From assembly GCA_900128565.1 (NCBI GenBank), contig LT635949.1, positions 1 to 34,852 on the forward strand: a stretch of 34,852 nucleotides of DNA, in the 5' to 3' direction. A program made the translations under genes and the position numbers. Under the pieces are notes generated by a model, which worked only from the letters and a program-made list of their open reading frames with translations, was not told the origin of the DNA and ran no database searches. Of the stretch, positions 1 through 27,332 are shown in pieces (positions within the stretch are counted from its first letter, which is position 1; every line of letters begins with the position of its first letter). The DNA is from Stramenopiles sp. TOSAG23-6 (lineage: Eukaryota).

Positions 1-2948
1 TTAATGATTTTTCAAGTCCGAATACTCGCATTGCTCTTAAAAATGATGAATTGCTGTATAAGACTGCATATTATTGCCCAGAAGGCACTGGTGTTTTTGG
101 ACCCCTAAAATGTCCAAAAGGAACATTTTGCCCAGATTCCAAAACGCAAGTATCGTGCCCTTTGTTGCCAGATGGATCAACACTTTTTTGCAATGATGGA
201 TCATTCACCAAATCTCCATGTCCTGCAAATTTTGCATGTCAAACACCTTCACTGATTACTGAATGCACTAGTCTTGAGTTTTGTAGCGAAGGTACACTAA
301 CTCCATCTGAATGTCCCGGCAACTTAGCCTTGGCAACTGGTTCTCACGATCGATGTGAATGTCCATCAACTTTCTTTGGATACTTGAAAGTAGGGACCAC
401 AGGAGTTGTAACACAGCAACAGTGTGAAAATACTACAGTTGTAAATGAAGTAGTAACCCAATCATATATTACTTCAGCAATTTCACGTCATTCCTTATCC
501 TCTGCTGTTGATGTTAAAGTTGAAATGCTTCAAGGTTTAGAAACATTTGCCATTCAGTGTACAAAGTGCCCAAAAGGAACAATGTGCAAATGCAATAGTT
601 TTGAATCTTCTTGTAGCTCTGTTGGACATTGTTCAGGTGGTTTGGCTCTCTTTACAGATGATCCAGCACGTGAAGTACATTTAGAGCCTGGATATTGGCA
701 AATCAGAGAGTACTTTAAGGATAAACCAGAAAACTTTTCACCATATTATTGTGGAGACTACGTACCTCCAAAATATGCTACTGCTTTATGCCTTGGGGGA
801 GTGGATAGGCCCCATCCAAACCCAAATGGAAGAAATTGTCGTGAGGGGCATACTGGCCCGCTATGTGCTTTATGCTGTTCCCAAAAGAAATATGATTTAT
901 GTTTAGCCAAGTGTAAAGATACTGACAATGTCTGCAAAGATTCGTGTACAGAAAAGTGGAAGAATGGATGTAAATTAGGTGCAGAGTGGGCATTGTCTGG
1001 TTTCACTTGCAATAACTGCACAGATAGTGGAGACAATTCAAATACACCCAATATACTTTTTATTGTTTTATGTATACTTCTTTACATTGTATTTATCTTA
1101 TTGATGACATTGAAGGCAAATCCTGTAGTTTATGACGATGTCTTAGCAGAAAAGAGAAAGAAAGCTAGAAGAAGATTGAAGAAGTTATCAAAAATGATTA
1201 CTCTATTTGAGGCAGGCACATCAGTGACAAAAGTAATCCCCATTGGATCATCGAAAGAACGACACACTCATGATTTAAATATATTTAAGAAGCAAAGCTT
1301 TCTTCACAATAAAATTCACAAGATGGCGGATACAAACAAGGGGCGTAAAAAATTAATGACAGTTTTGCACAAGAAAACCAAACCCAAAACTCAAGTGTCA
1401 ATTGAAGAAAAGTTGAAACGTCGAAAACGACGACACATTCATGAGGGACAAATGTCAAAAACCGACAAGGCACAGAAGTGGGGAGAATTGCAGTCCACAG
1501 TAAAGCTCATCATTAGCTTTCTACAAGTGACATCCCAATTGAAGTATACTTCAGGTGAACCACAGCCTGAAGATTTTGAAAACTTCTCTGAATCACTTGA
1601 CATTGTAAATTTAGATTTCACACAAATTGCCCCAGACCTAGGTCCATGCAGTTTTGCTTCCAATTTTGAGTACAAGTTCTACACCCATATCATACTCCTT
1701 CCATTATGTTTACTACTTATTGGAATAGCCTTGGCAAATGCTATTTGTATAAAGAACTTCTGCCACTTTAAATTAAAGTTTACAAAAAGTAGCGCAAGGA
1801 TGCATGCTCGAAACTTAATGAGCAATATATTATTTGTGATGTATCCGGGTCTTTGTATGAAGTGCTTCAATGTTTTCAATTGTCTTGAAATTAATGGAAT
1901 TAGATATCTATATGCGGATCTTAGTATTGAATGTTCTGGAGACCAATACGAAATGATGGCAATAACTGCTAAAATTGGAATAGCTTTTTATGTAGTTGGT
2001 ATACCAGCTTCATCGTGCATCTTTTTTTATCATATAAGAGACTGGCTTGTGGCACAAGAAGATATGGATGACGACATGTATACTGCTATCTCAACAAATG
2101 ACGAAATCAACAGAACACACTTTAAATATTTGGAGCAGTATGGAAATTTGTATTTGAATTATCGTCATGGTGTATGGTGGTATGAGTTTGTTGAAATGAT
2201 CCGAAAAGCTGCTATGACAGGATTTTTAACAATCTGGCCGGCTGGCGTGTATCGTAATTGTGTATCTGTAGCAACATCATTTTTCTTCTTCATGTTTTGC
2301 TTAATTGTGAAACCATTTCGACGAAATGGCGATTTTAGTCTTCAGTCACTTTTACTTTTTCTCACAATGGGTGTATTTTTCTCAAATTTGTTGATTTCTA
2401 GTGGCATGTTGACAAGTGATTCTTCTGGTCTGAATGAGGTACTGGTAGGATCCCACTGTTGTGGTTTACTATATGGTGGAATTGTTGTGTTTACAATGAT
2501 TCCACCTGTGAGGAAAAAGCTTGAGGGCTTTCACCATAGAAAACTGCGAAGAAAAGTGGCTGTTGCACGGCAAGTGTTAGGGGATTCCTCAAATCAAAGT
2601 TTAGAAAATAACAAAATTACATACGAAAATAATTTGCAGTCAGTTGCACCATCAAAATTTGCCATTGAGGAAGATTCTGTCGATGAAAATAAGTATTCCT
2701 ATGAGCCTTCAGATGAGGAAGATTCTTCAGATGAGAAAGAAATTGTTAGAGAAGATTTACCTGACTCTGTCAATGTACAGCAACTTATGGATACATTTGA
2801 TCAAGACTTACAAGGTATTACAGAAGAGTTACCTAATTCTGAAGAAAACATATCTGATTCTGTAAATTCTGAAGAAGAAATATCTGATTCTGTAAATGAT
2901 TTACCTCTTGTTGCAGAAGATTTTTCTGAGGATGAAACATATTTGTAA
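1..2948 (+). CDS. Large multi-pass membrane protein with a Cys-rich ectodomain (5'-truncated by the window edge)
   Basis: The frame is open from position 3 (NDFSSPNTRIAL...) to TAA at 2948. It has CPxGxYCP-like Cys repeats (YCPEG, FCPDS, FCNDGS, FCSEGT) and CREGHTGPLCALC. About 8 hydrophobic segments carry motifs common in protist multi-TM proteins (KLIISFLQV, YPGLC..FNC, YGNLYLNY..WWYEFVEMIRK), followed by an acidic tail. Confidence 0.8.
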   Translation, partial: NDFSSPNTRIALKNDELLYKTAYYCPEGTGVFGPLKCPKGTFCPDSKTQVSCPLLPDGSTLFCNDGSFTKSPCPANFACQTPSLITECTSLEFCSEGTLTPSECPGNLALATGSHDRCECPSTFFGYLKVGTTGVVTQQQCENTTVVNEVVTQSYITSAISRHSLSSAVDVKVEMLQGLETFAIQCTKCPKGTMCKCNSFESSCSSVGHCSGGLALFTDDPAREVHLEPGYWQIREYFKDKPENFSPYYCGDYVPPKYATALCLGGVDRPHPNPNGRNCREGHTGPLCALCCSQKKYDLCLAKCKDTDNVCKDSCTEKWKNGCKLGAEWALSGFTCNNCTDSGDNSNTPNILFIVLCILLYIVFILLMTLKANPVVYDDVLAEKRKKARRRLKKLSKMITLFEAGTSVTKVIPIGSSKERHTHDLNIFKKQSFLHNKIHKMADTNKGRKKLMTVLHKKTKPKTQVSIEEKLKRRKRRHIHEGQMSKTDKAQKWGELQSTVKLIISFLQVTSQLKYTSGEPQPEDFENFSESLDIVNLDFTQIAPDLGPCSFASNFEYKFYTHIILLPLCLLLIGIALANAICIKNFCHFKLKFTKSSARMHARNLMSNILFVMYPGLCMKCFNVFNCLEINGIRYLYADLSIECSGDQYEMMAITAKIGIAFYVVGIPASSCIFFYHIRDWLVAQEDMDDDMYTAISTNDEINRTHFKYLEQYGNLYLNYRHGVWWYEFVEMIRKAAMTGFLTIWPAGVYRNCVSVATSFFFFMFCLIVKPFRRNGDFSLQSLLLFLTMGVFFSNLLISSGMLTSDSSGLNEVLVGSHCCGLLYGGIVVFTMIPPVRKKLEGFHHRKLRRKVAVARQVLGDSSNQSLENNKITYENNLQSVAPSKFAIEEDSVDENKYSYEPSDEEDSSDEKEIVREDLPDSVNVQQLMDTFDQDLQGITEELPNSEENISDSVNSEEEISDSVNDLPLVAEDFSEDETYL

Positions 2949-3195: not shown

Positions 3196-5392
3196 TCATG
3201 CTCTCCCTGGACATTGAAACCCGTCGGGTCCACAAGCAACATTGTCATCTACACGGTATGTAAATCCTGGGTTTTCAACAGGCCAGACATGACTTCCACC
3301 AGCTGGCATTTTTGGAGCATCAACACATTCAGTACATTTCTTTTCTGGGTCTAAAGTTACTTTTACTCTTGCTTGATGATTACAACAAATACCTAAAACA
3401 TTCCATGTTGATGTCATTTTTTCTGGTTGAGAGTTAAAATCACCATCAATTGCATTTGTTACAATTTCCAACTCAACTTTTTCACCATTTCGAAGTTTTT
3501 CTTTTACATGATCCGGTAAAGCAATTTTTTGCTGAAACTGTTGCCATGCCCAGTGACTTCCCATGCCGGATTGAGGATTTGATCTCATAGCACAATTAGC
3601 AGAGTCTGGATTTTTGGCACGATCATTTGGTCTTTGAATAACCAATTCTCTCTTACTTCTTGGTATTCCGATGGGTCCACTAAATAACTCAGCAGCTTGA
3701 TAAGAATCACCTCCATCAATAGATACTTCAACACGACATATCCCACGACCACCTCCAGACCAAGCTACACCCTCTACAGTTACACTATCCATTTGACCAG
3801 ATAAAGTAGCTCTATCAGGAGGTTCTGAAATGACAGACTGGACAGGTAAAGTTTGAATTACAGGACCTTGATCGAGTCGAAGTTTATCTTCTCCTTCACG
3901 TATGTGACCTTTAAATGTTACATCTGGTGCAAAATGACGATCAAGTTTTGATCCAGAGTCCAACTCTGACGGAGCTTCAGTCAAAATAATTCTAGAAACC
4001 CACTTCACATTACGACAACCAGCATGTCCTGGAGCTAAGAGACGAATAGGGTATCCATGATCACGTGGTAGAGTTTCATCATTCATCTCATACGCAAAAA
4101 TTGTGGAAAAATATTTAAAAAAATAAAAATCGTTAGGTAAAAAATTTTCTTTGTAAAAACTTTGAAATTTTTTAAGTGGACAACATACAAGAATTGCATC
4201 ACCAAATGGATTTACTACTTTTTCAATAGGTATTACTCCAGCATACGGTGTCCCAGTCTCATCCTGGTCTTCTCCAATAAAATTTACTATTTTCACTTTA
4301 GAATGAGAAACGTTTCCTAAAGCCATATATTGTGAAAAAATATGTCGTACGTTTGAAATTTGTTAGGTACGAAAATTGGTACAAAAGAAAATAAATTTGA
4401 AATTAAGTGATAAAAACATACATACCATCTACATCTAAACCTGCAACACGAAATATATCTCGAACTTTTACACCCACCCATTTTGCACAACCAATTGCAC
4501 CACCGCGCCAATGAGGTGCGACATATAAAGGGCGATCAGGGGTGACATAATCTTCTTGTCGATTTCCAGCGCATTGTAAAGCAGATACGACTTCATGTCT
4601 GGGAAATTTAGTCTTGAGATCTGCAAGAGTTAGTTTTAATTCTTTCGTTCCTGCATCTTCATTTGCTTCAATCTCTAAAACATAATCTTCAATATCAACG
4701 CTGGGTACAGGATTATGATTACGTACAAAAAATAAGTCATTTGGAGTTAAAAAATCATTCACCAAAGCTCTAAGTGGCGGTTCCATATTCCAAGGTTTCG
4801 TTGATGGTATGCGCATTTCTGTTGCTTTTGGCCTTTCTGGATCATCCTTGTATGCATCTTCAAATTGAGACTCATTTTTGACAATGATGGCATCTTCAGG
4901 GGATAAACTACCAATCCTATAGTCTTCGAGTAACTCACGAATGTGAGGTCGGTCATGGATTTCGTGATATACCCGCCAAAAGGCATGCAAATCTTGACCA
5001 GAAACCATCATGATACGCATAGCACCACCAGGATGAGCATCCATAAAGTTAGTGACATCATAAACACCACCATTGAGACTGACCCAAACGCGACCTTCAG
5101 GTGCGTTGCGAAACTCGTCCAAGGAGAAGATTCGGTTCAATGTACCTTCTGGAGGAGCTCCACCCGAGCCAAAGGTTCCTGCAACAGGGGCATCATCACT
5201 AAAAGTATTTTGGTTGCTCACAACTGCTGCCGCGAAAGCAGCTGATCCTGCTGCTAATCCATATATACCAAATTTACGGAAATTTGACCTAGGAGGAGAC
5301 ACAATATAACTTAAAGAACGACTTCTCGGTAAAGATAATCTAGACCTTGATGCTGAAAGGTGTAGTCTGTATCCACTATGTCGTAACAACAT
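3196..5392 (-). CDS. Sulfite-oxidase-family molybdoenzyme with an N-terminal cytochrome b5 domain; 3 exons (5392-4422, 4324-4189, 4095-3196; about 668 aa)
   Basis: It has an Arg/Ser-rich mitochondrial-type presequence plus a hydrophobic stretch, and a b5 domain (GVYDVTNFMDAHPGG). The Moco domain shows FFVRNH, LQCAGNR, AYEMNDETLPRDHGYPIRL and RNVKW. The dimerisation domain shows GVAWSGGGRGICRVEVSIDGG. The two ORFs join in frame after removal of two related AT-rich inserts. Confidence 0.9.
4096..4188 (-). other. Non-canonical intron, GT...TT, 93 nt (family member 2)
   Basis: It starts GTATGTTG, contains TACCTAAC and ends ATATTTTTCCACAATTTTT. Removal restores the conserved GDAIL|AYEMN motif. 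Confidence 0.8.
4325..4421 (-). other. Non-canonical intron, GT...AT, 97 nt (family member 1)
   Basis: It starts GTATGTTT, contains TACCTAAC and ends ATATTTTTTCACAATATAT. It contains an in-frame stop, so it must be removed. Joining AT|G gives DGMALGNV. A GT-AG alternative (4425-4317) is also in frame. Confidence 0.65.
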
Positions 5393-5758
5393 TGATGATT
5401 TTTAATGATATTGTAGAGGTCTACACGAGGTTTTGACTAAATTATATACAGGATACAATGTTACAAAATGAATCGATTTTGAAAAGACACCAAAAATTTT
5501 TATGATTGTCGTCAGGTCAGGTAGATTTATTTATTTTTGTGGTGATCTCTTGAAGAAGACGACCGAAGTGTTTCAAGTTTGAATTCAAAAAAAGAAAGTT
5601 CCTGAAATTTTTGGTACGGAATATTGCTATGAAAAAATTAGCTCGCTCTCCATTTATTCATTGTTGGTGCCAGGACAATTTTCAAAAGAAGGAGTAAAGA
5701 AAATATTTGTTTTTTTACCGGTGTGTGAATTTCTCACAAAAGGAAAGTTCTTGTGGAA

Positions 5759-6437: not shown

Positions 6438-6659
6438 AATAAACACTACACCTTTAAAGGAATTCACGTAACAACATTTAGTCCGTACATTAGTTTTTAT
6501 TCTATGTGTTGTGTTTCTTTTCTTTTAACGTGTAGTGGTTTGCTAACATGGCATGCCAATTTAAGAAAAAATAATCCAGAATATATTCCAGCTTTTCAAT
6601 ATGCACAGTTTCAGCCTTAAGTGGAGTAGAAAATGAAACTGAATAATGAGAGAAAGATG

Positions 6660-6714
6660 AAAAAAACCTAAGTTTCTTTAGGCACAAAATTTCGTATGAA
6701 AAAAATAAATTTGA
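6660..6714 (-). mobile_element. Degenerate intergenic copy of the internal part of the non-canonical intron family
   Basis: The minus strand reads TCAAATTTATTTTTTTCATACGAAATTTTGTGCCTAAAGAAACTTAGGTTTTTTT. It aligns by eye with the ThrRS intron core TCGAATTTATTTTTCGTACGCAATTTTGTACCTAACAAATGTTAGGTTTTTTT at 45 of 53 positions plus a 2-nt gap. Confidence 0.6.
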
Positions 6715-7005
6715 TGAGTGTACAGTTGAAGAAAATATTTTTACCAAACCTTCATCAATTTTCAGTGGAAGAATCTCCTATATAATAAAAAAAATAATAT
6801 TTGTGTAAAGTTCTTTTTGTTTTACCTTTATTATAATCACAACATCTTATTACTTTATATGAACAAATTTTACGTTTTGTTGTGCTTTCCGGTACAAAAA
6901 AATGTGTTTTTCATAATTTTCTAATAATTAGAAGTATAAAGTAGCAATATCGTCTTGCATGAACTATCACTCTTGTGAATAATAAATTTATAAATTTGTC
7001 ATACA

Positions 7006-7557
7006 TTATTCATAAATACCTACAATTTCAACAGAACCATCTGCATTCACACGGGTTTTCTTAATCCGTTTCAACTGCTTTTTACTCATTTTCTTAATTT
7101 TTTCAACGTTTGTTATAGTTTGATAAGAACTATTTTTAAGCTCGTTTAGTTTTCGCCGTTTCTCTTGTTCCGCTCTTCTTTCTCTCTCTGCGACACGTTT
7201 TAACCTTTTTTTCTCTTTGATTTCATTTTCTAAAGTTTTCATTTGTTTCCTCAGTTTGTTTGCTGCTTGTTTCTTTTCCCATAAAGCTTTACTATTTGCT
7301 ACTTTTTTCCTACCTGCGGCAGAAGATCGACGTGGTTGCTTCCGTTTCCAATGACGATCACTGACACACTTACCAATAGTTTTATTAGTGGATACATCAA
7401 TCGCAGCAACAGATTGAACTGCGTATGGTCTTGGTAATACTTTACCTGTACTTGCTTTAACATCACATAGTGTTCCATCAGGAAATTTTCTCTCTCGATA
7501 TGTAGGTGTCTTGGTAACTTTGGCAGTCACGTTATCCTTTGAAGTCACTGGAGCCAT
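7006..7557 (-). CDS. CCDC86: CCDC86/Cgr1-family nucleolar coiled-coil protein
   Basis: GKCVSDRHWK resembles GKPKSGRxWK. It is followed by WEKK, a basic coiled coil ending RRKLNELK, and QTITNVEKIKKMSKKQLKRIKK. Confidence 0.75.
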   Translation of the reverse strand: MAPVTSKDNVTAKVTKTPTYRERKFPDGTLCDVKASTGKVLPRPYAVQSVAAIDVSTNKTIGKCVSDRHWKRKQPRRSSAAGRKKVANSKALWEKKQAANKLRKQMKTLENEIKEKKRLKRVAERERRAEQEKRRKLNELKNSSYQTITNVEKIKKMSKKQLKRIKKTRVNADGSVEIVGIYE

Positions 7558-7944
7558 GATGTTATGAATTGTATTTTAACTGAAGAATGTATTTAAGTAT
7601 CTCTCTACTATAATATACTTTTGGAGTGGGTCGTAATGTCACAATAACTTCTTGGTGGCGGGGAATCCCAATACTTTCTTGCAGGAATAGTACTTTTCAA
7701 GATGTAGAGTGTGTGTGACTGTTCTTAATTAAACTGGATAGATTTTGAATGTTACCGGGTACGCAAAATGTAACGTCCTGAAATCTGACTACCTCTTTAT
7801 CTATCTATATCTCGTTCCAAACATTTATGTGGTTGGTATAACACAGAAAGTAGTTTGCACCAACGTAATAATGTACTATTTCACCAACATTACCAAATAA
7901 TAGACACAATACAATTGTTCTATATAGACAAACAAAATCATATT

Positions 7945-9254: not shown

Positions 9255-12200
9255 TTATGAAATTGGAGCGTCTGCCAAATTACTACGACATGAACCAGCA
9301 GTAGTTAGTAATGGTTTTCCTTGCCACGTAGCAACACATTCATCATTCGTTTTCAAATCTTTTGCCATTGCTTCCCACAATTTTTTCTTCTTCACTTGGC
9401 TTTTTGTTGCTGGAGTACCACTCAGTCCTTCAATAAATATGCGCTCACCATTCGCTGCACCAACAGGAGGTTCCACAAATTGAACTGCGTCGCCTAGTTT
9501 TGCACATAATACCATTCCCTCACTAGTCACACCAGCTAATTTTGCAGCTTTCAAATTTGCAACTACCAATACTTTTCGTCCTTCCATATCACTTACTTCT
9601 GGATAAAACTGTCGAAGACCTGAACTGATTGATCTCATACCAATTTCTGCTCCTAAGTCAATTTCTTCACACCATAATTTTTCAGAATCAGGATTTGGCC
9701 AAGCCTTTGTTATCGTTCCAACACGTATGTCAATCTTTGTAAATGAATCTTGATTTGGATCAGATGCTACCTTTTGCTTTTTCTTTCCTTTATTAGCATT
9801 TTTGTCACCTTTTTGAATGAGTTTTGCAGCTTCTAGGAGAGCAGATGGTTGTTGAGGTTTATCACAACATTCTTGCTTCATATTAGTAATTATTTGTTCA
9901 ATCGTTTTAACTTCTTGTCCATTTGTACCACGAGGACGAACCGCAGCCGACTTAATTGACATCTCAGCATCGCCAACTATTAAAATATAGTTATATTGAG
10001 CTAGAGACGCCTCACGAATTTTTTTTGGAAACTGTTTTGATGATAAATCTACGGAGACATGAAATCCAGCCATGTGTATTTTCTCCTTTACACTTCGAGC
10101 ATAATCATAATGAGCTTGAGCAATAGGGACAACCATAACTTGACGTGGGCTTAACCAAAGCGGCCATTTCCCACCATAATGCTCAGTAAGTATTGCAAAC
10201 ATTCGTTCAACAGACCCAAGCATTGCACGATGAACCATAACTGGTCTTTGAAACCCAGGAGCAGCTTCAGGATTTGAATTGGGTAAATTTTTATAAACAC
10301 CGCGACAAGAGGAGGATGATTCTGATTTCTTTTTTTGTTTCTTTTCTTTGGATTTTTCATTATCTGATTTTCGAATTTGTTCACCTGTACGATATTGTAA
10401 ATCGAAACGAATAGGTAGATTAAAATCTAATTGTACTGTAGCACACTGATGAATTCTGTCCATACAGTCAAATACTTTAATGTCAATTTTAGGACCATAA
10501 AATGCACCATCCCCAGGGTTATCTTTCCAATTGCCTTTTCCAGCAAACTCATCTAAAGCATTTGCTAATGACTCTTCAGCATCATCCCATCGTTTAAGTC
10601 CTTCAGGAGTATCAGCACCAACTGCTTTTTTAGGTCGAGTACTACGCTCAAGTTTAAATTTCATACCAAAAATAGAGTATACAGCTTTCATAAATTGAAG
10701 TGAACCAACAACTTCATCTTTCACTTGTTCAGGGGTGCAAAATATATGTGCATCATCTTGCTGGAAACGTCTGACACGTGTCAATCCAGTTAATGCACCA
10801 GAACGTTCATTACGATGTAAAACACCAAAATCAGCCATTCTGATGGGCATTTCTCTGAAAGTTCTGATTTGTTGACGAAACATTAAACAATGTCCAGGAC
10901 AATTCATTGGCTTCAAGGCAAATTCATCCTGATCACTTGTATTAAATAAAAACATATCATCTCTGTAGTGCTGATAATGACCTGAAATTTTCCATAAATC
11001 AGTTGAAAAAATATTCGGTGTAACAACTTCATCATAACCGCGCTGCCAATATTCATTTTTTATGAAATCGATTAAAGCATTGTATATACGAGCACCATGA
11101 GGAAGAAAGAAAGCTGATCCTGGAGTTAAATCATGAAAGAAAAATAATTGTTGACGAGGCCCAATGCGACGATGATCATTCATTCTTTTCAATTCCATCA
11201 CAGCTTTCCATTTTTTCATTTCTTTTTTATCAGGGAATGCAACACCATGTATTTTGGAAAAATATTTCAAAAAAAAAACCTAACATTTGTTAGGTACAAA
11301 ATTGCGTACGAAAAATAAATTCGAAATTGAAAAAAAATAAAACATACATATACACGCTGTAGTGAGTCACATTTTTCATCACCCATCCAATATGTTGCAC
11401 TATGTTTTATAACATCCATACACGTAATTGAAGAGGTTGTAGGCACGTGTGGTCCCATACATAAATCAATAAATGGTCCATTTTTGTACACTGTCGTAAA
11501 TGTATTATCTGTGACTTTTGTTCTTATAATTTCTAATTTAAAGGGATTATACTCAAACAACTCAAGTGCTTCAGCTTTAGAAACAATCATTCTTTCAAAC
11601 ACTTGTTTTTCTTTAATTGTTGTAGCATTTCTCTTGCTTAGTACCTGGTACCACTTTTCTTCTGTGACAACGTCTTTACCTACAAAAGCATCATAATAAA
11701 AACCATTTTTTAGTGGAGGACCAATGGTCAAGACAGCACCGAATTCACGCTCCATACTTTGACCTAGAATATGAGCTGCAGAGTGCTTAAATGTTGTTTT
11801 ACCCTCTGGTGTACTGTAATTATGAAAAATAATGTCACAATCGCCTTCTAGTGGTCTATTTAAGTCCCACAACTCAAATTCTTGTTTCTCACTGGCGGTA
11901 GTTGTATCCATCTCGTCTCCACCAGCCTCAGCCATCATTTCTTCTTCAGCGTGTGTCACAATATCAGCACCATATCTTACACCAGTATAGCGAACTTCTG
12001 CAACAAGTTGACGTTTAGCCATTTGTTTTGAAATGTTTAATGCAATCATCATTGGTGTAGTTTCCCACGTTGTTCCAGGGTGAGTCTTCTTATCTGGCAT
12101 GGTGACTGTCATTGCCTCCCGTGGTTTTTCAAGAAGACGTTTTTCATACGCAGCTTTTACACGATTATATACATCTTCACGAGCAGCAATAAACTGTGGC

Positions 12201-12397
12201 GATTTACACCCAGAATAAGAATCGCCTCCAATTTTACCTTTAGATTGAAGAGTATGGACTTGACCTTCGACAGCACGGTCTTTGTTGACACGACCTAATG
12301 TGCTCTGGAGCACATGGACATCCCCACTGCTCACTTTCAAGCGAGAAAGTTCTGCTTCCAATTCAGCAATACGTTGATCTCTTTCGTTTGGCGTCAT
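9255..12397 (-). CDS. TARS1: Cytosolic threonyl-tRNA synthetase with a C-terminal EMAPII-like tRNA-binding domain; exons 12397-11348 and 11246-9255 (about 1013 aa)
   Basis: TGS region (WETTP, LWDLNRPLEGDC), editing domain (HSAAH, GFYYD, DLCMGPH), LQRVY|GVAFPDKK across the intron, and DHRRIG. Catalytic motifs are LKPMNCPGHC, GLTRVRRFQQDDAH, GAFYGPKID and HRAMLGSVER. The anticodon domain is followed by IDIRVG...NLKAAKLAGVTSEGMVLCA. Confidence 0.95.
11247..11347 (-). other. Non-canonical intron, GT...AT, 101 nt (family member 3)
   Basis: It starts GTATGTTT, contains TACCTAAC and ends ATATTTTTCCAAAATACAT. It shifts the frame and contains a stop. Exact removal restores LQRVY|GVAFP. Confidence 0.8.
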
Positions 12398-12624: not shown

Positions 12625-14106
12625 TTACATTTTCATTGCAAGTAAAAACTCCTCATAACTAATCACTCCATCAGTCCCACCATATTTCTCAAGCATTTGT
12701 GTTGCCTCTGTAGAGTCAAATTGTGATCCCAAAACTTCTTTTAAATTTTTTTTTGTAATTTGACCTGAGTGATCAACATCTAACATATCAAAGGCCTTTC
12801 GTAATTTTGTTTCATTCATGAACATTTTTCTAGCTATACAGGATGAAACAAATTCTGAAACTTCAATCAATCCATCACCTGAAATATCCACGGCATCAAA
12901 TATTTTTTTATATTCATCATCATCTAAAACATTTATATTTTGTGCTTTCAGTGACATATTTATAGAGTCTCTTAATTCTATTAAAGACACAAAACCATCA
13001 TGATTTTTGTCCATATTTATGAAATGTTTTTGAATGCATTCAATTTGTTGCGGGTGTAAGGTAAATGCTACTGTCGACACAATGAGTTGCTTTAATTTAT
13101 TCATATTGCTAAAGTTTTTCATTGAATCAAAAACTTCTAATGGTAATGGTGTAGGTGGGTGTTCCTGCTCTGCTTTCATTATCCAAGTATCGTTCAATGC
13201 TTCTGCTGCAGTTGGTCGAAGATCTGGATCAAATGTGAGAAGTCTTCTAACAAAATTTTTCGCATCTGTACTAATTCCATTCCAAATATCTGCTTTACGA
13301 GAAAAACTAAATTTTCCACGTTTTATCTTACTTAAGATAATTTTATCATTTGGACCTGGAAATGGCGGACTACCACTCAATATCATAAATGTTATAACAC
13401 CTAAACTCCATATATCACATTTGTAATTATACATTTTCTGTAAAGCTATTTCTGGAGCAATATAGTACGAAGTGCCAACCATATCCTTCATATTCGAATC
13501 ACTAGAATTCTTGATTTGTTTTGCAAAACCAAAGTCAATCAGTTTTAATGGTGAACTTTCACTTTTGTTTGCAAAAACAAAGTTTTCTAATTTTAAGTCT
13601 CTGTGAACAATATTTTTACTATGGAGGTAATTAATCGAGCTTAACATTTGCACTACCAATTTTGCTGCCTTATACTCCGTCAAGTGACCAGATTTCGAAT
13701 TAGCCAACCTTTCAAATAATTCACCACCACTGCATAGTTCCAACACCAAATATAAAAATCGATTTCTTTCGTTATAGGTCTCGTATAATCTTGCAACATT
13801 TGGATGGTCTGTTGCACTAAGCAAAGCTATCTCGGATCTTATTGCTTTAAGTGCATCAGTACCAGAAGCCATATATAAAGAAGCACAATTCATGACCTTT
13901 AGAGCAAACTGTTCCCCATCTGAACGTCTTGTGATTATCTTTACTTGACCTGATAAACCTTCACCTAATAACTCGAAACTATCAACACCACTATATAATC
14001 TACGGATATTAGCATATTTACCTTTACCATACTTTTTATTGGCTACAAGATTTTCATGCATTGTTGTTGTCTGGGTCGTTGCAACTTTAGCACTACAAAT
14101 TCCCAT
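12625..14106 (-). CDS. Calcium-dependent protein kinase (kinase plus four EF-hands) with a probable N-myristoylation/palmitoylation site
   Basis: MGICSAK N-terminus; kinase motifs GEGLSG, ALK, ELCSGGELF, HRDLKLEN, DFG and GTSYYIAPE. A junction helix precedes EF loops DKNHDGFVSLIE, DISGDGLIEVSE, DVDHSGQITKKN and a degenerate GTDGVISYEE. Confidence 0.92.
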   Translation of the reverse strand: MGICSAKVATTQTTTMHENLVANKKYGKGKYANIRRLYSGVDSFELLGEGLSGQVKIITRRSDGEQFALKVMNCASLYMASGTDALKAIRSEIALLSATDHPNVARLYETYNERNRFLYLVLELCSGGELFERLANSKSGHLTEYKAAKLVVQMLSSINYLHSKNIVHRDLKLENFVFANKSESSPLKLIDFGFAKQIKNSSDSNMKDMVGTSYYIAPEIALQKMYNYKCDIWSLGVITFMILSGSPPFPGPNDKIILSKIKRGKFSFSRKADIWNGISTDAKNFVRRLLTFDPDLRPTAAEALNDTWIMKAEQEHPPTPLPLEVFDSMKNFSNMNKLKQLIVSTVAFTLHPQQIECIQKHFINMDKNHDGFVSLIELRDSINMSLKAQNINVLDDDEYKKIFDAVDISGDGLIEVSEFVSSCIARKMFMNETKLRKAFDMLDVDHSGQITKKNLKEVLGSQFDSTEATQMLEKYGGTDGVISYEEFLLAMKM

Positions 14107-14334
14107 TTTATGGGGTATACTCTATCTCGATTTATTGATATTTCTTATCACAGCTGTAGCAACTCATTAGAAATGTATACAGCAGTACGATTATTCATAC
14201 TGAGCAAATATCAGGACATTACTTGAGTAGTGCATGCGGTAGTTCTATTGTTTTATTTCATTAATATAATCTATAGATCATAGCTTCTACAGCAATAGAT
14301 TGTAACTATCTATACGTAGTAGTAAATTTCTCCG

Positions 14335-14538: not shown

Positions 14539-17500
14539 TCAAGTAGAAGATTCACCACCTAATCCTAATAGAATACCCTTAGCTGCAGTAAATGTTAACT
14601 TGCCAGAACCATTTCCACCACTGCCAATATCGAGTAATTCTCTAGCATCATATATATCCACCTCATGTCCTAATCCACATAACCAATGTTTAAGCTCATT
14701 TGCTGTCATATAACCATCACCATCTGTATCACATAGATTAAATGAAGTTTTCCATTTAAATTCAAGTCTTTCTTGTTGTGTCATTGCATCCAGTATTTCG
14801 TGCGGATCATACTTCTCCTCATTTTCATCATATGATGAATCACTATTTGTGTCAATACTATCATTATTATTTTCAATACTATTATTATTAACATCGACAC
14901 TATAACTATTTGTGTCAATATTATTAATATTTTCAATATTATTATTATTATTAATATCGACAGTATAACTATTTGTGTCAATATTATTATTATTTATATC
15001 GATAGTATCATTATTTGTATCTGTACTATCATTTTTGTTTTGTTGATTTCTGACATGTTGCTGTATTACAATAGCTGCTCTATTTCTTGCTCTTTCTTTG
15101 ACATTTTCTATTTCTTGACTGAAATCCAAAAAAAAGTCATTTTGATTGATATTAGTATCATCTATATCATGCATAATGTTATTATTATCAATGTCAATTA
15201 GATCATTATTTTCAATAGCATTCATATTATTATTATTATCAATACTACCCATATCATTATTAACCTCAATATTATTATCATTATCAACATTATTAATTTT
15301 ATCGGCATAAGCAGTTGTAGCTATTAAAATATTTCTCTTTAATCGAACCATTTTTTGTATTTTTCTCACCGAACAAATTTCTAATTTGTTGAATTTGGTT
15401 TTATACTTTATATCCAATGAACATGTTACGAAATCTTCATATGAAACCATACCAGAATTAAATGTATCAAAATTCTTGGCTAATTGATTAATTTCTGGTA
15501 ATGACAAGAAATCCATTAATATTGGAGTTAGGACTTTACAAAATGTTTTTGTTGGAAGAGCCCCAACACGTTTCATGGGGTCAATAGAGTCAGTACAACG
15601 CAGTAATTTTCGCATATTTATACCTCTAACTCTCAAAAATGCAGCACCGCTGCTTAATTTTTGGAGAAGTTCATTTGTATCAATAGTATCATCATTCTTA
15701 TCAATAGTATTATTAATTGTAGTCTTTTGTTTTGATTCATCAGTCATATCTTTTGTAGAATCTAAAGAAAATGTGACATTTGTTGGACTATGCAGTCGAA
15801 TTTTTCGTGTTCTCCGAGCCTTTTGTGCTTTTTGTCGAGCAATTGCTAATTCTATTTCTTGAGTATATTGACCACGTAGTCGATCTCTTTCTAAACGAGC
15901 AGCATTTATTTTGTCATCAGCAAATCCAACACGACCTCCTCCTCGCGATGCTCGCTTTTTCATTTTGACAAAATTTCGTGTTTTTGCTGCTCTGTATGTA
16001 CTCTGTATAACTATTGCTGCATTGTTATGATTATTTATCGTGCGTTTTTTATCATATTGTTTATATAATGCTTGTAATGTCACTGCAACCTTTAATCTGG
16101 CATGTGTGCGCAATATATATTTGTGGCAGGTTTGACCAATAATTTGACTTGCATTTTTGTGTGTTTTGTGTTTTTTGTTTTTATTTCCTTTTTGGTCTAC
16201 CCTTTCATCATCATCATATTCAATACTGCTACCAGAGGCCAGGTCATTTATTGTATTGAGTTCATTTGGTGTATTACTATTTAAATCAACCACAGCAACA
16301 ACTACATTTCCTCTCTTGATAGCTTCAGATTTCTGAAGGACTTTCATTGAATCATTATGCCCTTTTTTAATATCATATCTCGCACAAGCAGTTTTACGCT
16401 GATAATCTCCTTCGCGTTTTCTCTCAATTTTAATAGTGGCAACCTTGCGACAAGCAATTACTATTCGTGCGTATGTCTGTATTTGAAGTGCACTGCGATT
16501 TTTATGTAGCATATCTTTTCGAACAGCCGATGCACGAATTATTCTTTGTAGTAATAAAGCTGCTTTATTTCGTGTGCATAATGTTCCACGAGTCAATCGA
16601 CCTCTGTGAAAACTTTGTAAGCGTATAGCAGCTATAGTTTGTTTTTGTTCATGCTGCTTCAATTTTTTACCAATGTTACGTGTCAAATAACCCCTTCCAA
16701 TACTTTGTATCTGTATTGCCGAAGTAATATAATCTGAAGAATCCAAATAATTATTATTATCATGAATGTCATTTTCCACTGTCTTCTGTATACTGTTATT
16801 ACCATGAATATCGTTTTTCACTGTCTTTTGTATATTATCGTTATCATGAATGTCATTTTTCATAGTCTTTTGTATATTATTATTATCGCATGTGTTTTGT
16901 ATGCTTTGTATGCGTTTTTTTGCTTGAGGAGATCGTCCAGGATACGGAACAGGCAAATCAGATTTTAGTGCTGATTTTAGTGCTGATTTTTCTTTAACTT
17001 TTTTTATTTTTTTTAACTTTTTTTCACTTTTTTTTTCACTTTCTGCTTTTTCTTCAGTCTGGTTTCTAGACTTTTGTTCCGATTGTGCAGATTTGACGAT
17101 TGCATTTCTTTGTTTTAATTTTGGTGCTTCTGTTTCTTCTGTTTTACTTCGTGACTTTAATCTTTGCTTTTGCTTTGTTCGCTTTAATCGTTGGTGTCGT
17201 ACAGGAACTATTTTTTCTACATTATTTTTTTCCTTATTTTTCGTTGATTTTATACTTTTTATTTTTTTTTTGTTTTGTTTTTTTTGTTTTGCTGAACTTT
17301 TAATTTTTTTCTCGGTTGATTCTACTTGCAAAATATCAGTATCATGACCGAGAAGACCAGTGTGTGAATTTATAATTTCGGTCCATTCAACATAGCCATC
17401 ATTATTAATATCTGTCACAGTTACAGTCATTTCAGCATCTAGCTTACTTTGCATTTGCCATTCATCCATAATCTCATTAGACAAGCTTTTTACATATAAA

Positions 17501-20500
17501 TTGACTGTATCTTTGATTCGGTCATAATTTGGTATTTCCCCATACTCAGTCTGTTTATTAATTTCAATAATTTGATTCCGTAGTTTTTGATATTTCCTGC
17601 AAGCGCCAATACATTTTTTCATATATAAAAATATCATAGTAAACATATCAACTGCATGATTAATTTGCAATTTACCTTTCCCATCCTTATTATAAGATTG
17701 CCAAATTGGTCTTAATTCAGAAACTCGTAGTTGTCCTAAAACACTAAACTTCAAACTTTTCATGCTTTTTGCATTTTGCGAAATTCGCGCAATGGCTGGA
17801 AGAAGTGCAGAAGTCAGTACGTCTTCATAATCACCAAATATTGTACTATAACGTGAATTATCATTCTCATTAATATTATCTTGTGTTGATTGAGGAAACT
17901 GCTCTGTACTTGGAGCATTTTCATCCAAATTTATGATTTTCAAATTTTGTAATTTATCTTTCTTTAATAATGCGACTTTTCGAAGATTTACTGCTTCTTC
18001 TGACCAATCTTCTACATGGAATCCAGCTAAAGCATGTTTTAATCGAAGGCGATCACCTACTCTTCGAATACCTAATTTTGTACTTAAAATATGATCGATA
18101 TAAACATCTCTCTCGCTACCAACCTTTTCATTATGTAATATATTTTTTGTTTGATCACCGATGATACCTTTTCGATCATCTATATCTGTACCTAAGATTG
18201 ATGCCTTCATTGCAAGTAAAGCATCAGAAGTAATGTTATGTTGCCAAAACTTTGATATAAAACTTGACATATTTAGCGATGATAAAAACATTTCCACAAT
18301 GACATCTCGAGGATGTACGACTGATGGTGATGGTTCAACTGATGGTTCAACTGATGGTGGTAGTGTTTGAGCATCATGTCTCTGTAATGATGCCACCCTT
18401 CTTGCTCCACTTGCGCTTTTTATTTTTCTACTATTTTTCTTACTTATCAAAGCAGATGATGTTTGAGGGCGACGTCCCAGTGGAATATTTGTCCCTTTTC
18501 GTGGAACATATATCTTTCTCTCTTTACCATTCTTCTTCGAATTATTTTTTCTATCCATCAGTGAATAAGATTTCGTGGTCTTTACATTAGGTTTTTGCCT
18601 AATTTTTCTTTCTATCTCAACTGTTGAGAGTTTCAAAAAGTTTTCTAAATATTTCAAATTGGCTGATGAAGGATCACCATGATTTCGGAGTAATAATAAA
18701 GTATACGGATTTTGTTTTTCATTACTATATTGATAAGGACTTTGCAACGCTGTCCTAATATTTATACTTGAATCACGTTCATTTATAGTACGTTGTTGTG
18801 ATGTATATCGCGTTGGTTTGGCTGAGTATGGTCTACGTTTATATTTATTGCTTTGTTTTTTGTGTACTGCAGAAAATGGTCGAGGTTTTCGAATTATTTT
18901 TTTTTTCGTGCTTTTCTTCTTTATTTTAATACCCATTGGCTCTATATTATTTTTTATCGCTTTCCCCATTCCAGATGAATGATGCTTGGCTATATTTTTA
19001 TTTTGTATCCTTGACATAAATCGATTATAATCAGCTCTACGTATCGGGGAACATTGTCGCCGGGATGTGTCAGTTAATTTAATAAAACTGCTATCTGGTG
19101 TTTTCAACTGTTCATTTTTTCCTTTTGTTTCTTCAGTACTTTTTCCTTTTGTTTCTTTAGTACTTTTGTTTATATGACTAGCTGTTGTTTTTTCATACTC
19201 AGGTGGAACATTAAGGCTTAGAGAAGTTATATCTGGCGTAGAAACAGGTTTATCCATAGCCATTATTGTCATATACGGATTTTCATTATTTCCGTTCTTT
19301 CCTACTCGTGGTCCTACAAGTAGTGTTTGTGGTACCAGAAATTCTGCATCGTGCATATTGCCATCTGGGCCCTTTACAGGAATTCGTGACTTATGAATAT
19401 TATTCCAAGATGTTTTCAATGGAGGAACAAAGCTATCATTATTTGTATGTGCTTTTTTTTTATTTCTCTTTTTTTGTAGATCTTTTGATTTTTTTTTAAC
19501 TTTAGTCCGTTTCTTAAATATTTTGTTTCGGAACACTTTGTAACGCTGATTAACAGTTTTCTCATCAAGATATGATTTACCTAGTTCTTTCAACATACTT
19601 TTCTGTTGTTTCTTATGCCAATCTGTGTTTGCTTTTACTTCAGTGATTAATGAGAGACTTTGCGACATAACATTACTATGATTGATATCTGGTGTTACTG
19701 CAAAATGAATCGTCCCATTTTTATTTAATACATCATCTGCACTTGATTTGACTGGCGTAAAATCACCTAATTGATTATTGACTTTATCAAACATTGGTGT
19801 TTTTATTTGTTTCATTGGCACTTTTGTATATTTTAATGGCGCTTTATATTTTATTGGTGATTTTGTTTGCTGTATTAGTGTTTTTCTTTGTCGAATTGGT
19901 GACTTCGTTTGTTTTATTGATGATTTTATTGGTTTTACTGATGATTTTACTTGTTTTACTGGTGATTTTTTTTCTTTCAGTTTTTTTATTGACGTTTCCA
20001 TGTCATTTGAGTTACTTTCAATGATATATTTTTTCCAGTTAGGAATATTTTGTTGTAGTGCATCTAATCCACGCATAGGTCTTGGATCAACATATTTTGT
20101 ATTATCAGAATCTGTAGTATTCTTTGCAACATCTGTAGAATTATCATTCTCATTATCTATTGTATTATTATTCTCAACATCTATTGTATTATTATTCTCA
20201 ACATCTATAGTATCATTATTCTCAACATCTATAGTATCAGTATTCTCAACATCTATAGTATTATTATTCTCAACATCTATAGTATCATTATTCTCAACAT
20301 CTATAGTATTATTAGTAACACTTTCAGAATTGAGAACTGCTTTCTGCAACGTTTCGGAGACAATACTTTTATCTGCATTAGTTTGTGTAAGTAAATTATC
20401 TGAAAGATGTATTGCAAGTGCCTGTTCATGCATGGCTTTTGCTTCAGAAACTCTACCAAGTTTTTCTAATTGACTGCCATGACTATGATAAGCAATTACT

Positions 20501-21405: not shown

Positions 21406-21715
21406 TATTCTAATATATGACTGTGCATATATCTATAATCAAATGTTAAAGCAAAATGGAGAAAGTGAATACAATTCAGAACAGAACCTTGCGTATAACA
21501 ACGTGGTAGTAAACTATTAGTAATTTTTACTCTAGCTACTGGTACAAGCCTAATAACACTATAACGCTAATAATTGGTAACGGCCAAAAAATAAACGGAT
21601 GAACAAACCGAACAAACCTGTTGTTCTCTTCGATTTTGAAATTGAATGAAATGAAATGAAAGAATTCAATTTGATTTACTTTAGTTGATCTTTTACTAAT
21701 GCCAACATCAACACA

Positions 21716-24444: not shown

Positions 24445-24726
24445 CTTGTGTATCACTCACCACCAGAAATATTTAACGCAAAGACAATACTGTGGCAAAA
24501 TAATTGTGTGTGTCTACAATTTTCGTCTCTGCTACGTATTTCTTTTCATTGACATTTTTTTTGTGTGAATATTTTCGAAGTTCCTCAACAACACGAAAAC
24601 AAACGAAAAAAATGAAAAAAAACGAATTCAGGAACGACATCATCTTCTTGATTTGAAAAAACAAGGTTCTCTTCTTTTATGTAAACACTACCTTCAGTCA
24701 AAAACATAAGAACAACTTCAAGAATT

Positions 24727-25975
24727 ATGGCGAAGGGACATGGTCTTAATTCATGCTACTTGGCAATTTATTATGCAACGTTATCAATAGTTTGGTTAAG
24801 CTTAGCAGTATATGCTTCATTATTTTACGAAACTTATGAAGAAAACTGTTCCGCGACTTGTCCGCTTGTTACTTTAGATGTTGCCTATGTTAATGAAAAA
24901 ATTGCAGCAGGGGACCAAAGAGTAATAGACTTCTATGGTGGTGCAACATATAATAATGATCCAATTAATACAGTATCTTCAAAATTTTGTTACAGATCGG
25001 GGGCAATATGTCTTAAAAAACCTGAGACCGATGGACAATTGCGTAACCAGTGCGAAGTTTACAGTGAAATTTATAATCTGACAGCAGCAGACGCTTGGAA
25101 ATACAAGTGCTTGATTTGCGATGAAACCAATCAGTCTAGAGTCTTATGGCCTTCTTTAACAACATCACTAGAGAGTTTTTGGAACGTAGCACAACCTTGC
25201 GGCGAAGTAAGTATAGTACCTGGAATACCAGAGACGGATATCCCCACAGCGCTTTTTCCAGATATGCCAATCGACTCTCGTCAAGAAAAAGGCTATTTCA
25301 GGTATCCATTCGGTGTAGGCGATTATACAATGTGTTATAACTTTGATGAACCAAGTGATTTCTGGATTACTGTAGCAAAATTGTCTCTTAAAATTTCTAT
25401 TTATATTTTTTTCATTAATTCAACTTTAGGTTTACTATCAGCGGCGATACTGGCAACGTTTCATAAAGTACTTTTAAGCGATTGGAATAGACTGTCACTT
25501 CCCAAGCAATGTGCTTCATACTTATTGACAATTATGATGAAATTACTTAAAATTTCATGGTTGATTGGTTTCTGCGTTTCCTTTATTGCTTTAGGTACTA
25601 ATGGATTGGATAAAACTTGCGTTTTTCAAGAAACTGAATTAGGGTCCGTTGATGTTTATCCAAAGGCAGAAGCGTTTTGTTGGGCCTCATTTATTTCTTA
25701 TTTATTAGTACTCATCTATCGTAATTTTAGAAGGCAAGATATTGTGTGTTGTCTATTTTAATTTCAAATATATTTTTTTATTGAAAATTTCTAACCTGAC
25801 GAATTTCAAACTTATAACATATTTTCTTACTATACTTATCGGTGATGTGCAGTTTATGTATATACCATATGAACTATCGCCAGTTAGATCTGATGATAAG
25901 TGTGACTGTGGAAGTTTCTATCGTGTTTTTTTACAACCATGCTTTGTATATTTTGAAAAATATGTCGGCCCATAA
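24727..25975 (+). CDS. Multi-pass membrane protein with a Cys-rich luminal loop; exons 24727-25743 and 25838-25975 (about 384 aa)
   Basis: N-terminal TM, a Cys- and N-glycan-site-rich loop, then three further hydrophobic helices. The two overlapping ORFs join in frame once the family intron is removed. Confidence 0.7.
25744..25837 (+). other. Non-canonical intron, GT...TT, 94 nt (family member 4)
   Basis: It starts GTGTGTTG, contains AATTTCAAA and AACCTGAC, and ends ATATTTTCTTACTATACTT. Cutting at the end of the 19-nt block gives the in-frame join RQDI|IGDVQF. A CAG at 25850-25852 is an in-frame alternative. Confidence 0.55.
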
Positions 25976-26114
25976 ATTATTGAAGACTAATAAAAATATA
26001 CTCTTGTAGTTTCTGTATTTTATTAAAGAAACACCTTCCAAGGAAACAGAAGATTTGATTGCAAATCATAGTTTTATACATACAACATACTAAAAAATAG
26101 TAGACATATTGATT

Positions 26115-27332
26115 TCAAACTCGAAGTCGCATAGCTTCTAATTTTTTCTTTTTCCTGTCAATTATCTTTTGCCTAGCTGCAGCTCTTGCATCAACAACAA
26201 CACCAGCTTCGGATTCATATTTTTTTATAATTGATGAGAAAACAGATTTTTTAAGCATACGATCTATCTGACCAAGCAATCCTAAATTTGGTTCATTTCC
26301 TTTTTTTTTTAATATTTTTGAATCAATTATCTTCGACATTCCAAAGTCGATCAACTTAAATGTTCCGAAATGATCCATCATCATATTTTTACCAATATTA
26401 TCATCATTATGAAGAATTTCAGCAGCGCTGAGATCACGGACTAACTTTTCAATTTGTTTGGCTTGAGAAGATTTCAATGTCTTATTCTGTTCCATGATGA
26501 CGTCCTCTAAAGTTTTATAAAGTTTTTCCATAACAAAACAACGATTATTGGCGTCAATACTCCAAGTAGATACAATTTTAGGTGCAAGACCAAGCGCAGC
26601 CGCTTTCTTCTGAAATGCAATTTCTTTACGAATATTAGTAGTAGATTTTGTTGGTTTAAAAACCTTCATGGCATATTTTTGTCCATCTTTAAGCGAGAGA
26701 ACGAGAAATACTTGACCATCTTTTCCCTCAGCACCTAAAGTTGAAAGTGGTCGGAATTCATTTCGAGCCGACTGACTACAACTTTTCAATAAACGAGAGG
26801 TATCAAAATTTTCCACCTGTGGATCTTCATTATCAGACAAGGAAGTTATTTCGATACCATTTTGAAGAGTTTGAAATTTTCTTTGGCCTCTTTTTGTATA
26901 TTTTTTGGACTTTGATGTAGCTTTTTCATGGTTGACTGTAGCATCATCTTGAACAGAAGATAGACTATCGTCGTCTGATGTATTTGACTGCAAATTAGAG
27001 CTTTCTCTCGCCAGCTCAAGAAGAAGACGTTCAACCAATTCTGCCTTTCGCCCACTTACTTTGCAACCTAGTTTTGAAAGTTCAGCTTTTAACTCAACTA
27101 CTTTCATTTTTTTGACTTCTTTAGAGTGTATTCGCCCTAATTCCAGTGCGGCATCCGAAATACTTGGTACAGCTTTTACTTTTGCCATTTCAGTTCGAGT
27201 AGACTTTTTTCTACTAAAATTTTGCTGAACAACTTCAGATTCATCGTCAGAAGACCCCGTTATGTCGCCATTTGCAATACGGTAACTAAGCGGACCACGG
27301 CAAGATCTTTGACGTTGACCTCTAATTGTCAT
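26115..27332 (-). CDS. SAP-domain protein fused to a short atypical protein kinase domain
   Basis: SAP motif VKKMKVVELKAELSKLGCKVSGRKAELVERL. Kinase motifs are LGAEGKDGQV, YAMKVF, EIAFQ, VMEKL, LHNDDNIGKN and LIDFGMS, with no APE motif. Confidence 0.8.
   Translation of the reverse strand: MTIRGQRQRSCRGPLSYRIANGDITGSSDDESEVVQQNFSRKKSTRTEMAKVKAVPSISDAALELGRIHSKEVKKMKVVELKAELSKLGCKVSGRKAELVERLLLELARESSNLQSNTSDDDSLSSVQDDATVNHEKATSKSKKYTKRGQRKFQTLQNGIEITSLSDNEDPQVENFDTSRLLKSCSQSARNEFRPLSTLGAEGKDGQVFLVLSLKDGQKYAMKVFKPTKSTTNIRKEIAFQKKAAALGLAPKIVSTWSIDANNRCFVMEKLYKTLEDVIMEQNKTLKSSQAKQIEKLVRDLSAAEILHNDDNIGKNMMMDHFGTFKLIDFGMSKIIDSKILKKKGNEPNLGLLGQIDRMLKKSVFSSIIKKYESEAGVVVDARAAARQKIIDRKKKKLEAMRLRV

Follow-up and report, generated by a model that had tools for sequence, protein, structure and literature searches.

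The sulfite oxidase gene on contig LT635949.1 of Stramenopiles sp. TOSAG23-6 (assembly GCA_900128565.1; the whole stretch analysed, 34,852 nucleotides, is called the window below) is interrupted by a 93-nt sequence, intron A, which, to judge from assembled contigs of polyA libraries, is removed exactly at the RNA level and which does not end in AG. A second intron in the same gene (intron B) and one in a threonyl-tRNA synthetase gene (intron C) resemble intron A, likewise have non-AG ends, and upon exact excision restore the protein sequence seen in homologues. We consider it probable that these sequences are a family of introner-like introns of the spliceosomal type, with a 3′ splice site that is independent of AG. 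The AG at the end of an intron is one of the most constant signals of eukaryotic gene expression; Euglena, Amoebophrya and some tunicates are the known large-scale exceptions, each of which altered views on the limits of the spliceosome. In the present case it is the 3′ end alone that departs, the donor and branch-like motif being of textbook form, and the choice of site in the second splicing step can thus be considered by itself.

The window is eukaryotic and gene-dense, with ∼35% G+C and ∼16 long open reading frames (ORFs). The gene that hosts intron A, and the parts of that intron, are as follows.

3196..5392, minus strand: cytochrome b5 plus Mo-co sulfite oxidase gene; exons 5392..4422, 4324..4189 and 4095..3196 (stop included), 669 codons.
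4096..4188, minus strand: intron A, 93 nt, in the sulfite oxidase gene; GT..TT in the register that keeps the donor.
4183..4188, minus strand: donor-like hexamer GTATGT of intron A; the same hexamer starts introns B and C.
4132..4139, minus strand: branch-point-like TACCTAAC of intron A, 36 nt upstream of the 3′ junction; putative branch site.
4100..4114, minus strand: conserved 3′ block of intron A, ATATTTTTCCACAAT, ending 4 nt before the 3′ junction.

On the basis of its domain order, its matches in the PDB and its protein identity, the host gene is assigned as a eukaryotic sulfite oxidase. The Pfam domains Cyt-b5, Oxidored_molyb and Mo-co_dimer occur in that order, with matches on both of the gene's ORFs, and PDB sulfite oxidases match the host protein with E ∼1e-31. 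The joined three-exon model contains 0 internal stops, and the spliced product is 78–81% identical to the database proteins P0002 and P0003. The protein and its closest relatives share an internal segment of ∼65 residues (query residues 216–284) and, at the C-terminus (window 3196–3400, minus strand), an extension of ∼45 residues beyond the dimerisation domain; both are absent in the chicken enzyme.

An ORF lister reads intron A through as 31 residues between GDAIL and AYEMN. This reading, on which the first-pass annotation of the window had remarked, is confirmed in the minus-strand sequence. The intron ends in ...CACAATTTTT, after which the exon resumes as GCG TAT GAG ATG AAT. No AG is present in the last 36 nt, which follow TACCTAAC; the first AG past CCTAAC falls in the Glu codon, 9 nt beyond the junction, and its use would remove A-Y-E, just as the annotation had stated. 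The cost of such a removal is evident from homologues. Among the best 120 database matches, 112 span both sides of the junction and 8 do not, and in all 112 the number of residues at the position of the insert is zero; a similar insertion in homologues, which would have spoken for a coding role, is thus found in 0 of 112. The three residues that follow the junction in these proteins are AYE (85), AFE (14), VYE (7), AYD (2), AYK (2), AMK (1) and ANE (1), in line with the earlier claim that the motif is conserved. In the nearest relatives, which are 78%, 75% and 65% identical, the sequence is GDAILAYEMNG or GDAILAYDMNG. The alignment with chicken sulfite oxidase extends as far as ...DVLL, breaks off, and takes up again with LLAYEMN; it offers no counterpart for the 31 residues of the insert.

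RNA evidence was drawn from marine metatranscriptomes that carry the gene, by comparing the contigs of four runs (X1–X4) with the sulfite oxidase stretch. X3 and X4 are polyA libraries from two different studies; X1 and X2 belong to one study. In X3 and in X4, one contig each passes from exon 3 to exon 2 and omits exactly 93 nt (4094→4188), joining ...ATTCTT directly to GCGTATGAG and retaining A-Y-E. The two junction contigs have depths of 12.9 and 6.85, shorter sides of 77 and 30 nt, and 0 letters between the two sides. This is the junction that the first-pass annotation had proposed to look for, and none of the contigs of X1–X4 shows a skip of 102 nt that ends at the AG within the Glu codon. 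Template switching by reverse transcriptase can mimic non-canonical introns, and the skip is bordered by a 3-nt repeat, TTG, at which such switching, or else an error of assembly, might have generated the apparent loss. We give an artefact of this kind next to no credence, since the same junction is the sole form in the X3 and X4 contigs of two studies, at the depths given above, since it restores a motif that is filled in 112 of 112 homologues, and since the repeat is only 3 nt long.

The TTG at both junctions leaves the register of the cut ambiguous by 3 (4095–4098 / 4187–4190). The possible excised pieces, read on the coding strand, are TA..TG, GT..TT, TG..TT and TT..TT, none of which is GT-AG, GC-AG or AT-AC. 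The earlier claim of precise GT-TT splicing is therefore upheld as to the exact loss of 93 nt and not as to GT..TT as a unique cut; GT..TT is one of four registers, none of them canonical, and is the one that retains the GTATGT donor.

Two further introns of the same appearance lie in coding sequence.

4325..4421, minus strand: intron B, 97 nt, GT..AT, in the sulfite oxidase gene; in-frame stop, not a multiple of three (3n); placed by homology.
11247..11347, minus strand: intron C, 101 nt, GT..AT, in the threonyl-tRNA synthetase gene; in-frame stop, not 3n.
9255..12397, minus strand: threonyl-tRNA synthetase (ThrRS) gene with C-terminal tRNA_bind domain; exons 12397..11348 and 11246..9255.

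The context of intron B is ...GAT GGT AT, then GTATGT...TACCTAAC...CACAATATAT, then G GCT TTA GGA. Exact excision of 4421..4325 gives DVDGMALGN, and the closest relatives read ...GLDVDGMALGN... across this site. The nearest AG, paired with a GT 4 nt upstream of the donor, would remove M-A-L-G; of the relatives checked at this site, the 5 closest have MALG and a sixth has IALR. When the model with both non-AG junctions is aligned with P0003, 583 residues are aligned with 0 gaps. The alternative models each open a gap against the same protein, of 3 (A) or 4 (B) residues if the nearest AG is used and of 31 residues if intron A is retained. Excision of intron C yields a single frame of 1016 codons with a terminal stop only, and the junction DSLQRVY|GVAFPDKK. 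The motif LQRVYG[VI].F.D is found in 5 of the 7 ThrRS homologues checked; the other 2 were missed by the motif search, one of them being P0121, a mis-modelled protein that is discussed below. PDB structures of ThrRS match both flanks of intron C, and the sole AG after CCTAAC in this intron lies 8–9 nt downstream of CCTAAC. Introns B and C, along with a further copy, E, that is described below, carry in-frame stops and are not 3n; therefore, they must be removed, and B and C cannot be coding. To judge from homology, the ends of B and C must be AT, 4 nt past the conserved 3′ block.

Introns A, B and C have four blocks in common: GTATGT; AATTTCRAA; AATTTTNGTACCTAAC, with T for G in A; and ATATTTTTYCAMAAT. 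Their mean column identity, flanks included, is 75%. The last block is followed in all three by four bases and then by an exon that begins with G, and so always stands 4 nt before the junction that homology requires. This 15-nt block is matched exactly by three sites of the window, one each in A, B and C, vs 0 in 100 shuffles, and the combination GTATGT-N20-50-CCTAAC occurs 4 times vs 0.06 expected. All three introns have the GTATGT donor and a YTRAY branch-type motif, the putative branch site, and the distance from TACCTAAC to the 3′ junction is 36, 37 and 42 nt in A, B and C. Their 3′ ends are TT, AT and AT, and AG appears in none of the 4–5 registers open to each intron.

These shared signals also bear on whether intron A is an intron at all, as the 93 nt could be a lineage-specific insertion of 31 residues that is retained in the protein. 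In favour of this, the length of the insert is 3n, no stop interrupts it, the ORF reads through it, and the contigs of X1 and X2 keep it. We nevertheless judge a coding role to be very unlikely. Shuffles of the 3n insert are stop-free in 1522 of 20000 cases (7.6%), and its being 3n and stop-free is within chance; likewise, an AG-free run of 36 A/T-rich bases is, by our own estimate, unremarkable. What exceeds chance is the set of signals, not the openness of the frame or the absence of AG. The G+C content of intron A is 0.18, as compared with 0.36–0.42 for the exons. The signals of the insert recur in B and C, whose stops and lengths mark them as non-coding. The insert is missing from all 112 homologues, and the polyA RNA contigs lack it.

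A short direct repeat spans both junctions of each of the three introns, TTG in A, TATG in B and ATG in C (3, 4 and 3 nt). The pattern, taken as at least 2 nt to the left and 1 nt to the right of the junction, is present in 3 of 3 confirmed introns vs 2.4% of random site pairs, a coincidence that chance would seldom produce. The repeat may be a target-site duplication or may reflect a splice-site preference, between which three cases cannot distinguish. Folding of A, B and C with their flanks gives z-scores of 0.22, 0.76 and −1.77, that is, no significant structure. A scan of the three for inverted repeats returned only pairs of A/T runs plus one terminal pair in C (9 nt, 89%). No shared hairpin or stable fold was found in A, B and C, nor a shared terminal inverted repeat, which occurs in one of the three. 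The absence of a common fold or terminal inverted repeat fits removal that is driven by signals rather than by structure.

These observations suggest a pathway in which the donor GTATGT and the branch-point-like TACCTAAC would carry an ordinary U2-type spliceosome through the first step, because GTATGT and CCTAAC are strictly kept while the spacers drift; CCTAAC would serve as the branch point. The site of the second step would not be the first AG after the branch, because in A and B that AG lies 8–9 nt inside the exon and because C bypasses one. The 3′ cut would instead fall after WT and before G, a fixed 4 nt past ATATTTTTYCAMAAT and 36–42 nt from CCTAAC, and would be placed by the distance from the ATATTTTTYCAMAAT block or by the junction repeat, not by AG. 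The excised piece would consist of the element plus one copy of the short target-like repeat, such that an uninterrupted coding sequence is restored in the mRNA, and the family as a whole may have originated as a mobile element. That in this lineage of uncultured marine stramenopiles the spliceosome no longer needs AG at all, with a ruler from the intronic block or the junction repeat placing the 3′ site and a mobile family excising itself together with its target duplication, is a tentative proposal, possible but in our view open to more doubt than belief. An element that is removed exactly and without a target AG could colonise any coding site. If the proposal is true, this would be a distinct splicing code coupled to intron spreading, in which copies land harmlessly anywhere in coding sequence and are invisible to GT-AG annotation.

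Several points weigh against a 3′ site that is independent of AG. Each copy has a canonical in-frame option, at the price of 3 amino acids in A and 4 in B, with a gain of 10–11 amino acids in C, of the kind seen in P0121, and with an intron of 109 nt in E. Only three coding copies (A, B and C) could be judged. In solved spliceosomes, the intron's first G is paired with the final G of the AG; on chemical grounds, a U would not be expected there. The RNA support consists of assembled contigs that diverge by 0.4–0.7% from the window, and an allele without the insert could yield the same contigs. At intron B the contigs of X3 and X4 leave a gap, with ends at 4264/4433 and 4217/4473, and such a gap in cover counts neither for nor against removal; introns C and E lie outside the stretch that was compared with the RNA contigs, and RNA junctions are known for A alone. 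Nor was a contig that bears the intron found in X3 or X4. The X1 and X2 contigs that keep the 93 nt match the DNA colinearly and without a single difference. We read the latter contigs as DNA or source material because they also hold intron B and flanks outside the gene, again with 0 differences.

The divergence of the junction contigs leads to the explanation that we take most care to weigh, an insertion polymorphism. Under it, the family would be a recently active mobile element and the strains sampled in X3 and X4 would lack copy A in their DNA, while the strain of the window would splice its copies at GT-AG with small in-frame changes of the protein. Compared with the window, 4 of ∼1010 bases are different in the X3 contig and 7 of ∼975 in the X4 contig (99.6% and 99.3% alike), and the two have variants in common, which indicates that they come from a closely related population other than the strain of the window. 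The lack of an intron-bearing contig in these runs and the in-frame GT-AG option at every copy are as such a polymorphism would have it, and exact flanking codons are also expected just after an insertion with a short target duplication. Known introners, moreover, are often polymorphic and may add or delete neighbouring codons (PMC9860276). The same explanation, however, demands that a single genome carry three harmful alterations, each in a strongly conserved motif, in two genes of the housekeeping type. All 112 homologues have the AYE position filled, the 5 nearest relatives that were checked keep MALG, and LQRVYG would be broken in an essential synthetase. Intron B would have to skip the GTATGT of the family in favour of the GT 4 nt upstream, and C would have to use an AG only 8–9 nt after CCTAAC. 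Finally, the copies are ∼60–75% alike and differ by indels, yet the codons that would be relics of a recent insertion encode exactly the orthologous residues. On balance, we regard an insertion polymorphism as unlikely, though deserving of attention.

The U2 introns of intron-poor genomes, of the yeast type, have the consensus GTATGT / TACTAAC / YAG. The family shares with them the GTATGT donor, a CTAAC branch-like motif, a short length (93–101 nt) and a gene-dense, intron-poor setting, with three coding introns in ∼35 kb and ∼16 long ORFs. Unlike them, it has no AG at the 3′ end, with an AG-free tail of 36–37 nt in A and B and one AG bypassed in C, and it has an extra C in the branch motif (TACCTAAC) and a 15-nt block fixed 4 nt before the junction. 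U12-type introns have the donor consensus RTATCCTT and the branch site TCCTTAAC, ∼10–20 nt from the 3′ end. In that class, too, the last two bases vary and the distance from the branch site determines where the 3′ site lies, but the donor of the present family is GTATGT, its branch motif is TACCTAAC rather than TCCTTAAC, and 36–42 nt separate that motif from the 3′ end. U12-type splicing, nested (stwintron-like) introns and recursive splicing were all rejected as explanations, as each requires the last 3′ border to be AG, or AC where the intron starts with AT, and no register gives either.

Introners have been described in Micromonas, Aureococcus, Chrysochromulina and others (PMC9860276). Like them, the present family consists of introns of similar sequence at unrelated sites (A, B and C in two genes, plus E), with short repeats at the borders, a donor of its own, an unchanged length of the mRNA and, as in some introner families, no shared inverted ends; copies also lie outside coding sequence (D and F, described below), as introner copies do (PMC9860276). 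Variant 5′ ends (GC and GA) and splice sites co-opted from the target duplication are known among introners, and the portion of that source used here describes no AG-less family (PMC9860276). The WTG repeat of the present family, in contrast, cannot supply an AG.

Exact removal of the present family could also proceed by a non-spliceosomal pathway guided by repeats or by pairing, of the kind proposed for the nonconventional introns of Euglena or the introners of Amoebophrya. The resemblance to Amoebophrya includes a marine protist host, borders other than GT-AG that are supported by RNA, repeated intron families, the failure of standard gene predictors, and direct repeats of 3–5 nt that overlap the borders (PMC7789003), to be compared with the 3–4 nt repeats over both junctions here. 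The introners of Amoebophrya have inverted repeats of 8–20 nt that form a hairpin, and their terminal dinucleotides are not conserved (PMC7789003). The present family has neither a shared hairpin nor end-joining inverted repeats of 8–20 nt but does have a strict GTATGT and CCTAAC, and its host is a stramenopile, not a dinoflagellate.

In Euglena, nonconventional introns bear a CAG/CTG pairing signature and a purine opens the next exon (PMC4770533, PMC12501133). Nonconventional and 'intermediate' introns of euglenids resemble the present ones in having a canonical border paired with a non-canonical one, a purine as the first base of the downstream exon, the possibility of 3-nt pairing near the ends, and direct repeats at the junctions of recently gained introns (PMC4770533, PMC12501133). 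The TGT at positions +4..+6 of A and B could base-pair with an ACA at −9..−7, with a spacer of 6 nt remaining, and the first base of exon 2 is a purine in 3 of 3 introns, a loose echo of the Euglena pattern N3-CDG/CH'G-N5-6|R (PMC12501133). The pairing of TGT with ACA is absent in C, however, where the block reads CAAAAT; the CDG/CHG and CAG/CTG signatures are missing, no stable structure joins the ends, and a branch-like motif is present. GTATGT and CCTAAC are kept in A, B and C amid drifting sequence between the blocks, as would be expected of spliceosomal signals. We therefore hold a non-spliceosomal route to be quite improbable and favour, as above, spliceosomal-type introns with an AG-independent 3′ site. 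In Fritillaria and related tunicates, machinery of the U2 type handles many introns that are not GT/AG, and a link to a changed function of U2AF has been proposed (PMC13326754); that host is an animal and not a protist. In the literature that was searched, which took in few subscription journals, no family of GT...non-AG introns with an intact donor and branch motif is described, and no unusual introns of MAST-type stramenopiles are described either, including in one MAST single-cell genome paper. A scan of the window against Rfam gave 0 matches at the gathering score, and the window has no snRNA gene.

Further copies were sought with a covariance model that uses sequence only; it was built from copies A–D and run unfiltered on the window.

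25744..25837, plus strand: copy E, covariance-model match of 25.8 bits (E ∼3e-7), GTGTGT...CTAAC..., at the end of ORF 24685–25761.
6643..6729, minus strand: copy D, non-coding, with decayed donor, branch and 3′ blocks; 50 bits, a score from a model that has this copy in its training set.
5588..5638, minus strand: partial copy F, upstream of the start codon of the sulfite oxidase gene; weak match of 15.4 bits (E ∼5e-4), model positions 34–88.

For copy E, the junction options that keep the frame are 94 nt (GT..TT), 97 nt and a canonical 109 nt (AG at 25851–25852); no homologue of its host gene was found at E ≤ 1e-5. The 45-codon tail that follows this copy, to 25975, is rich in Cys and in aromatic residues. 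Copies D and F are situated one ∼270 nt beyond the stop of ORF 7006–7575 and the other upstream of the sulfite oxidase start. Because these copies lie outside coding sequence, the family is suggested to be a repeated, possibly mobile element. Two other candidates were rejected as members. The GTATGT...CCTAAC at 2624..2576 (minus strand), the fourth of the occurrences counted above, is antisense to ORF 3..2948 and lacks the other blocks, and a candidate at 26090 (minus strand) has GTATGT with a poor 3′ block 127 nt on, past the stop codon of its ORF. A metagenome scan for the branch block with the 3′ block returned 5 loci, none with GTATGT within 90 nt upstream and all with flanks unlike the family, which are treated as probable chance matches. 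Record 14 of X3 (192 nt) has 35 nt in common with intron B (4352–4386, 2 mismatches) between unrelated flanks, and past CCTAAC it seems to contain AG and to become richer in G+C within ∼25 nt. It may be a further copy of the family, perhaps with a canonical end, over an overlap too short for use.

The consequences for annotation can be seen in P0121, the public ThrRS model that is the best match to the ThrRS of the window and is identical to it at all aligned residues. At intron C, P0121 reads ...LQRV-FFLKYFSKIH-GVAFPD where homologues read ...LQRVYGVAFPD. A GT-AG intron was evidently forced in this model, because the extra residues are the translated 3′ tail of intron C after TTAG. The conserved motif is thereby padded, as could be expected from the earlier assertion that gene predictors mishandle such introns. 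P0121 is also without eight stretches (7–31 residues each) of continuous conserved coding sequence; one missing segment, FKHSAAHILG, aligns to the bacterial enzyme. The predictor has apparently cut false GT-AG introns from real ThrRS exons, and the proteins that have been published for this organism are, as a whole, probably not to be relied on. Gene models will be wrong wherever such introns occur, in this organism and probably in its relatives in ocean genome catalogues.

As for the ThrRS itself, its C-terminus (window 9255–9800, minus strand) is an EMAP-II-like tRNA_bind domain (PF01588). The fusion of ThrRS with tRNA_bind is common to the closest relatives in the match list (P0121–P0131) and absent in most other eukaryotic matches. 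From a reading of labels, P0121 would stem from a single-cell assembly of a MAST-type marine stramenopile, and the named matches that come next after it are MAST-4 and a set prefixed INCI.

Elsewhere in the window, the ORF at 3–2948 (plus strand) is a single exon of 981 residues, Cys-rich with CPxGTxC-like repeats and of membrane type, with no Pfam match. The ORF at 14539–21432 (minus strand), also a single exon, encodes 2297 residues, the sole recognised part of which is a C-terminal pair of EF-hands. EF-hands occur as well at 12625–14121 (minus strand), fused there to a protein kinase in a CDPK-like architecture, and two more kinase genes lie near this one, at 26115–27425 and 27684–29072.

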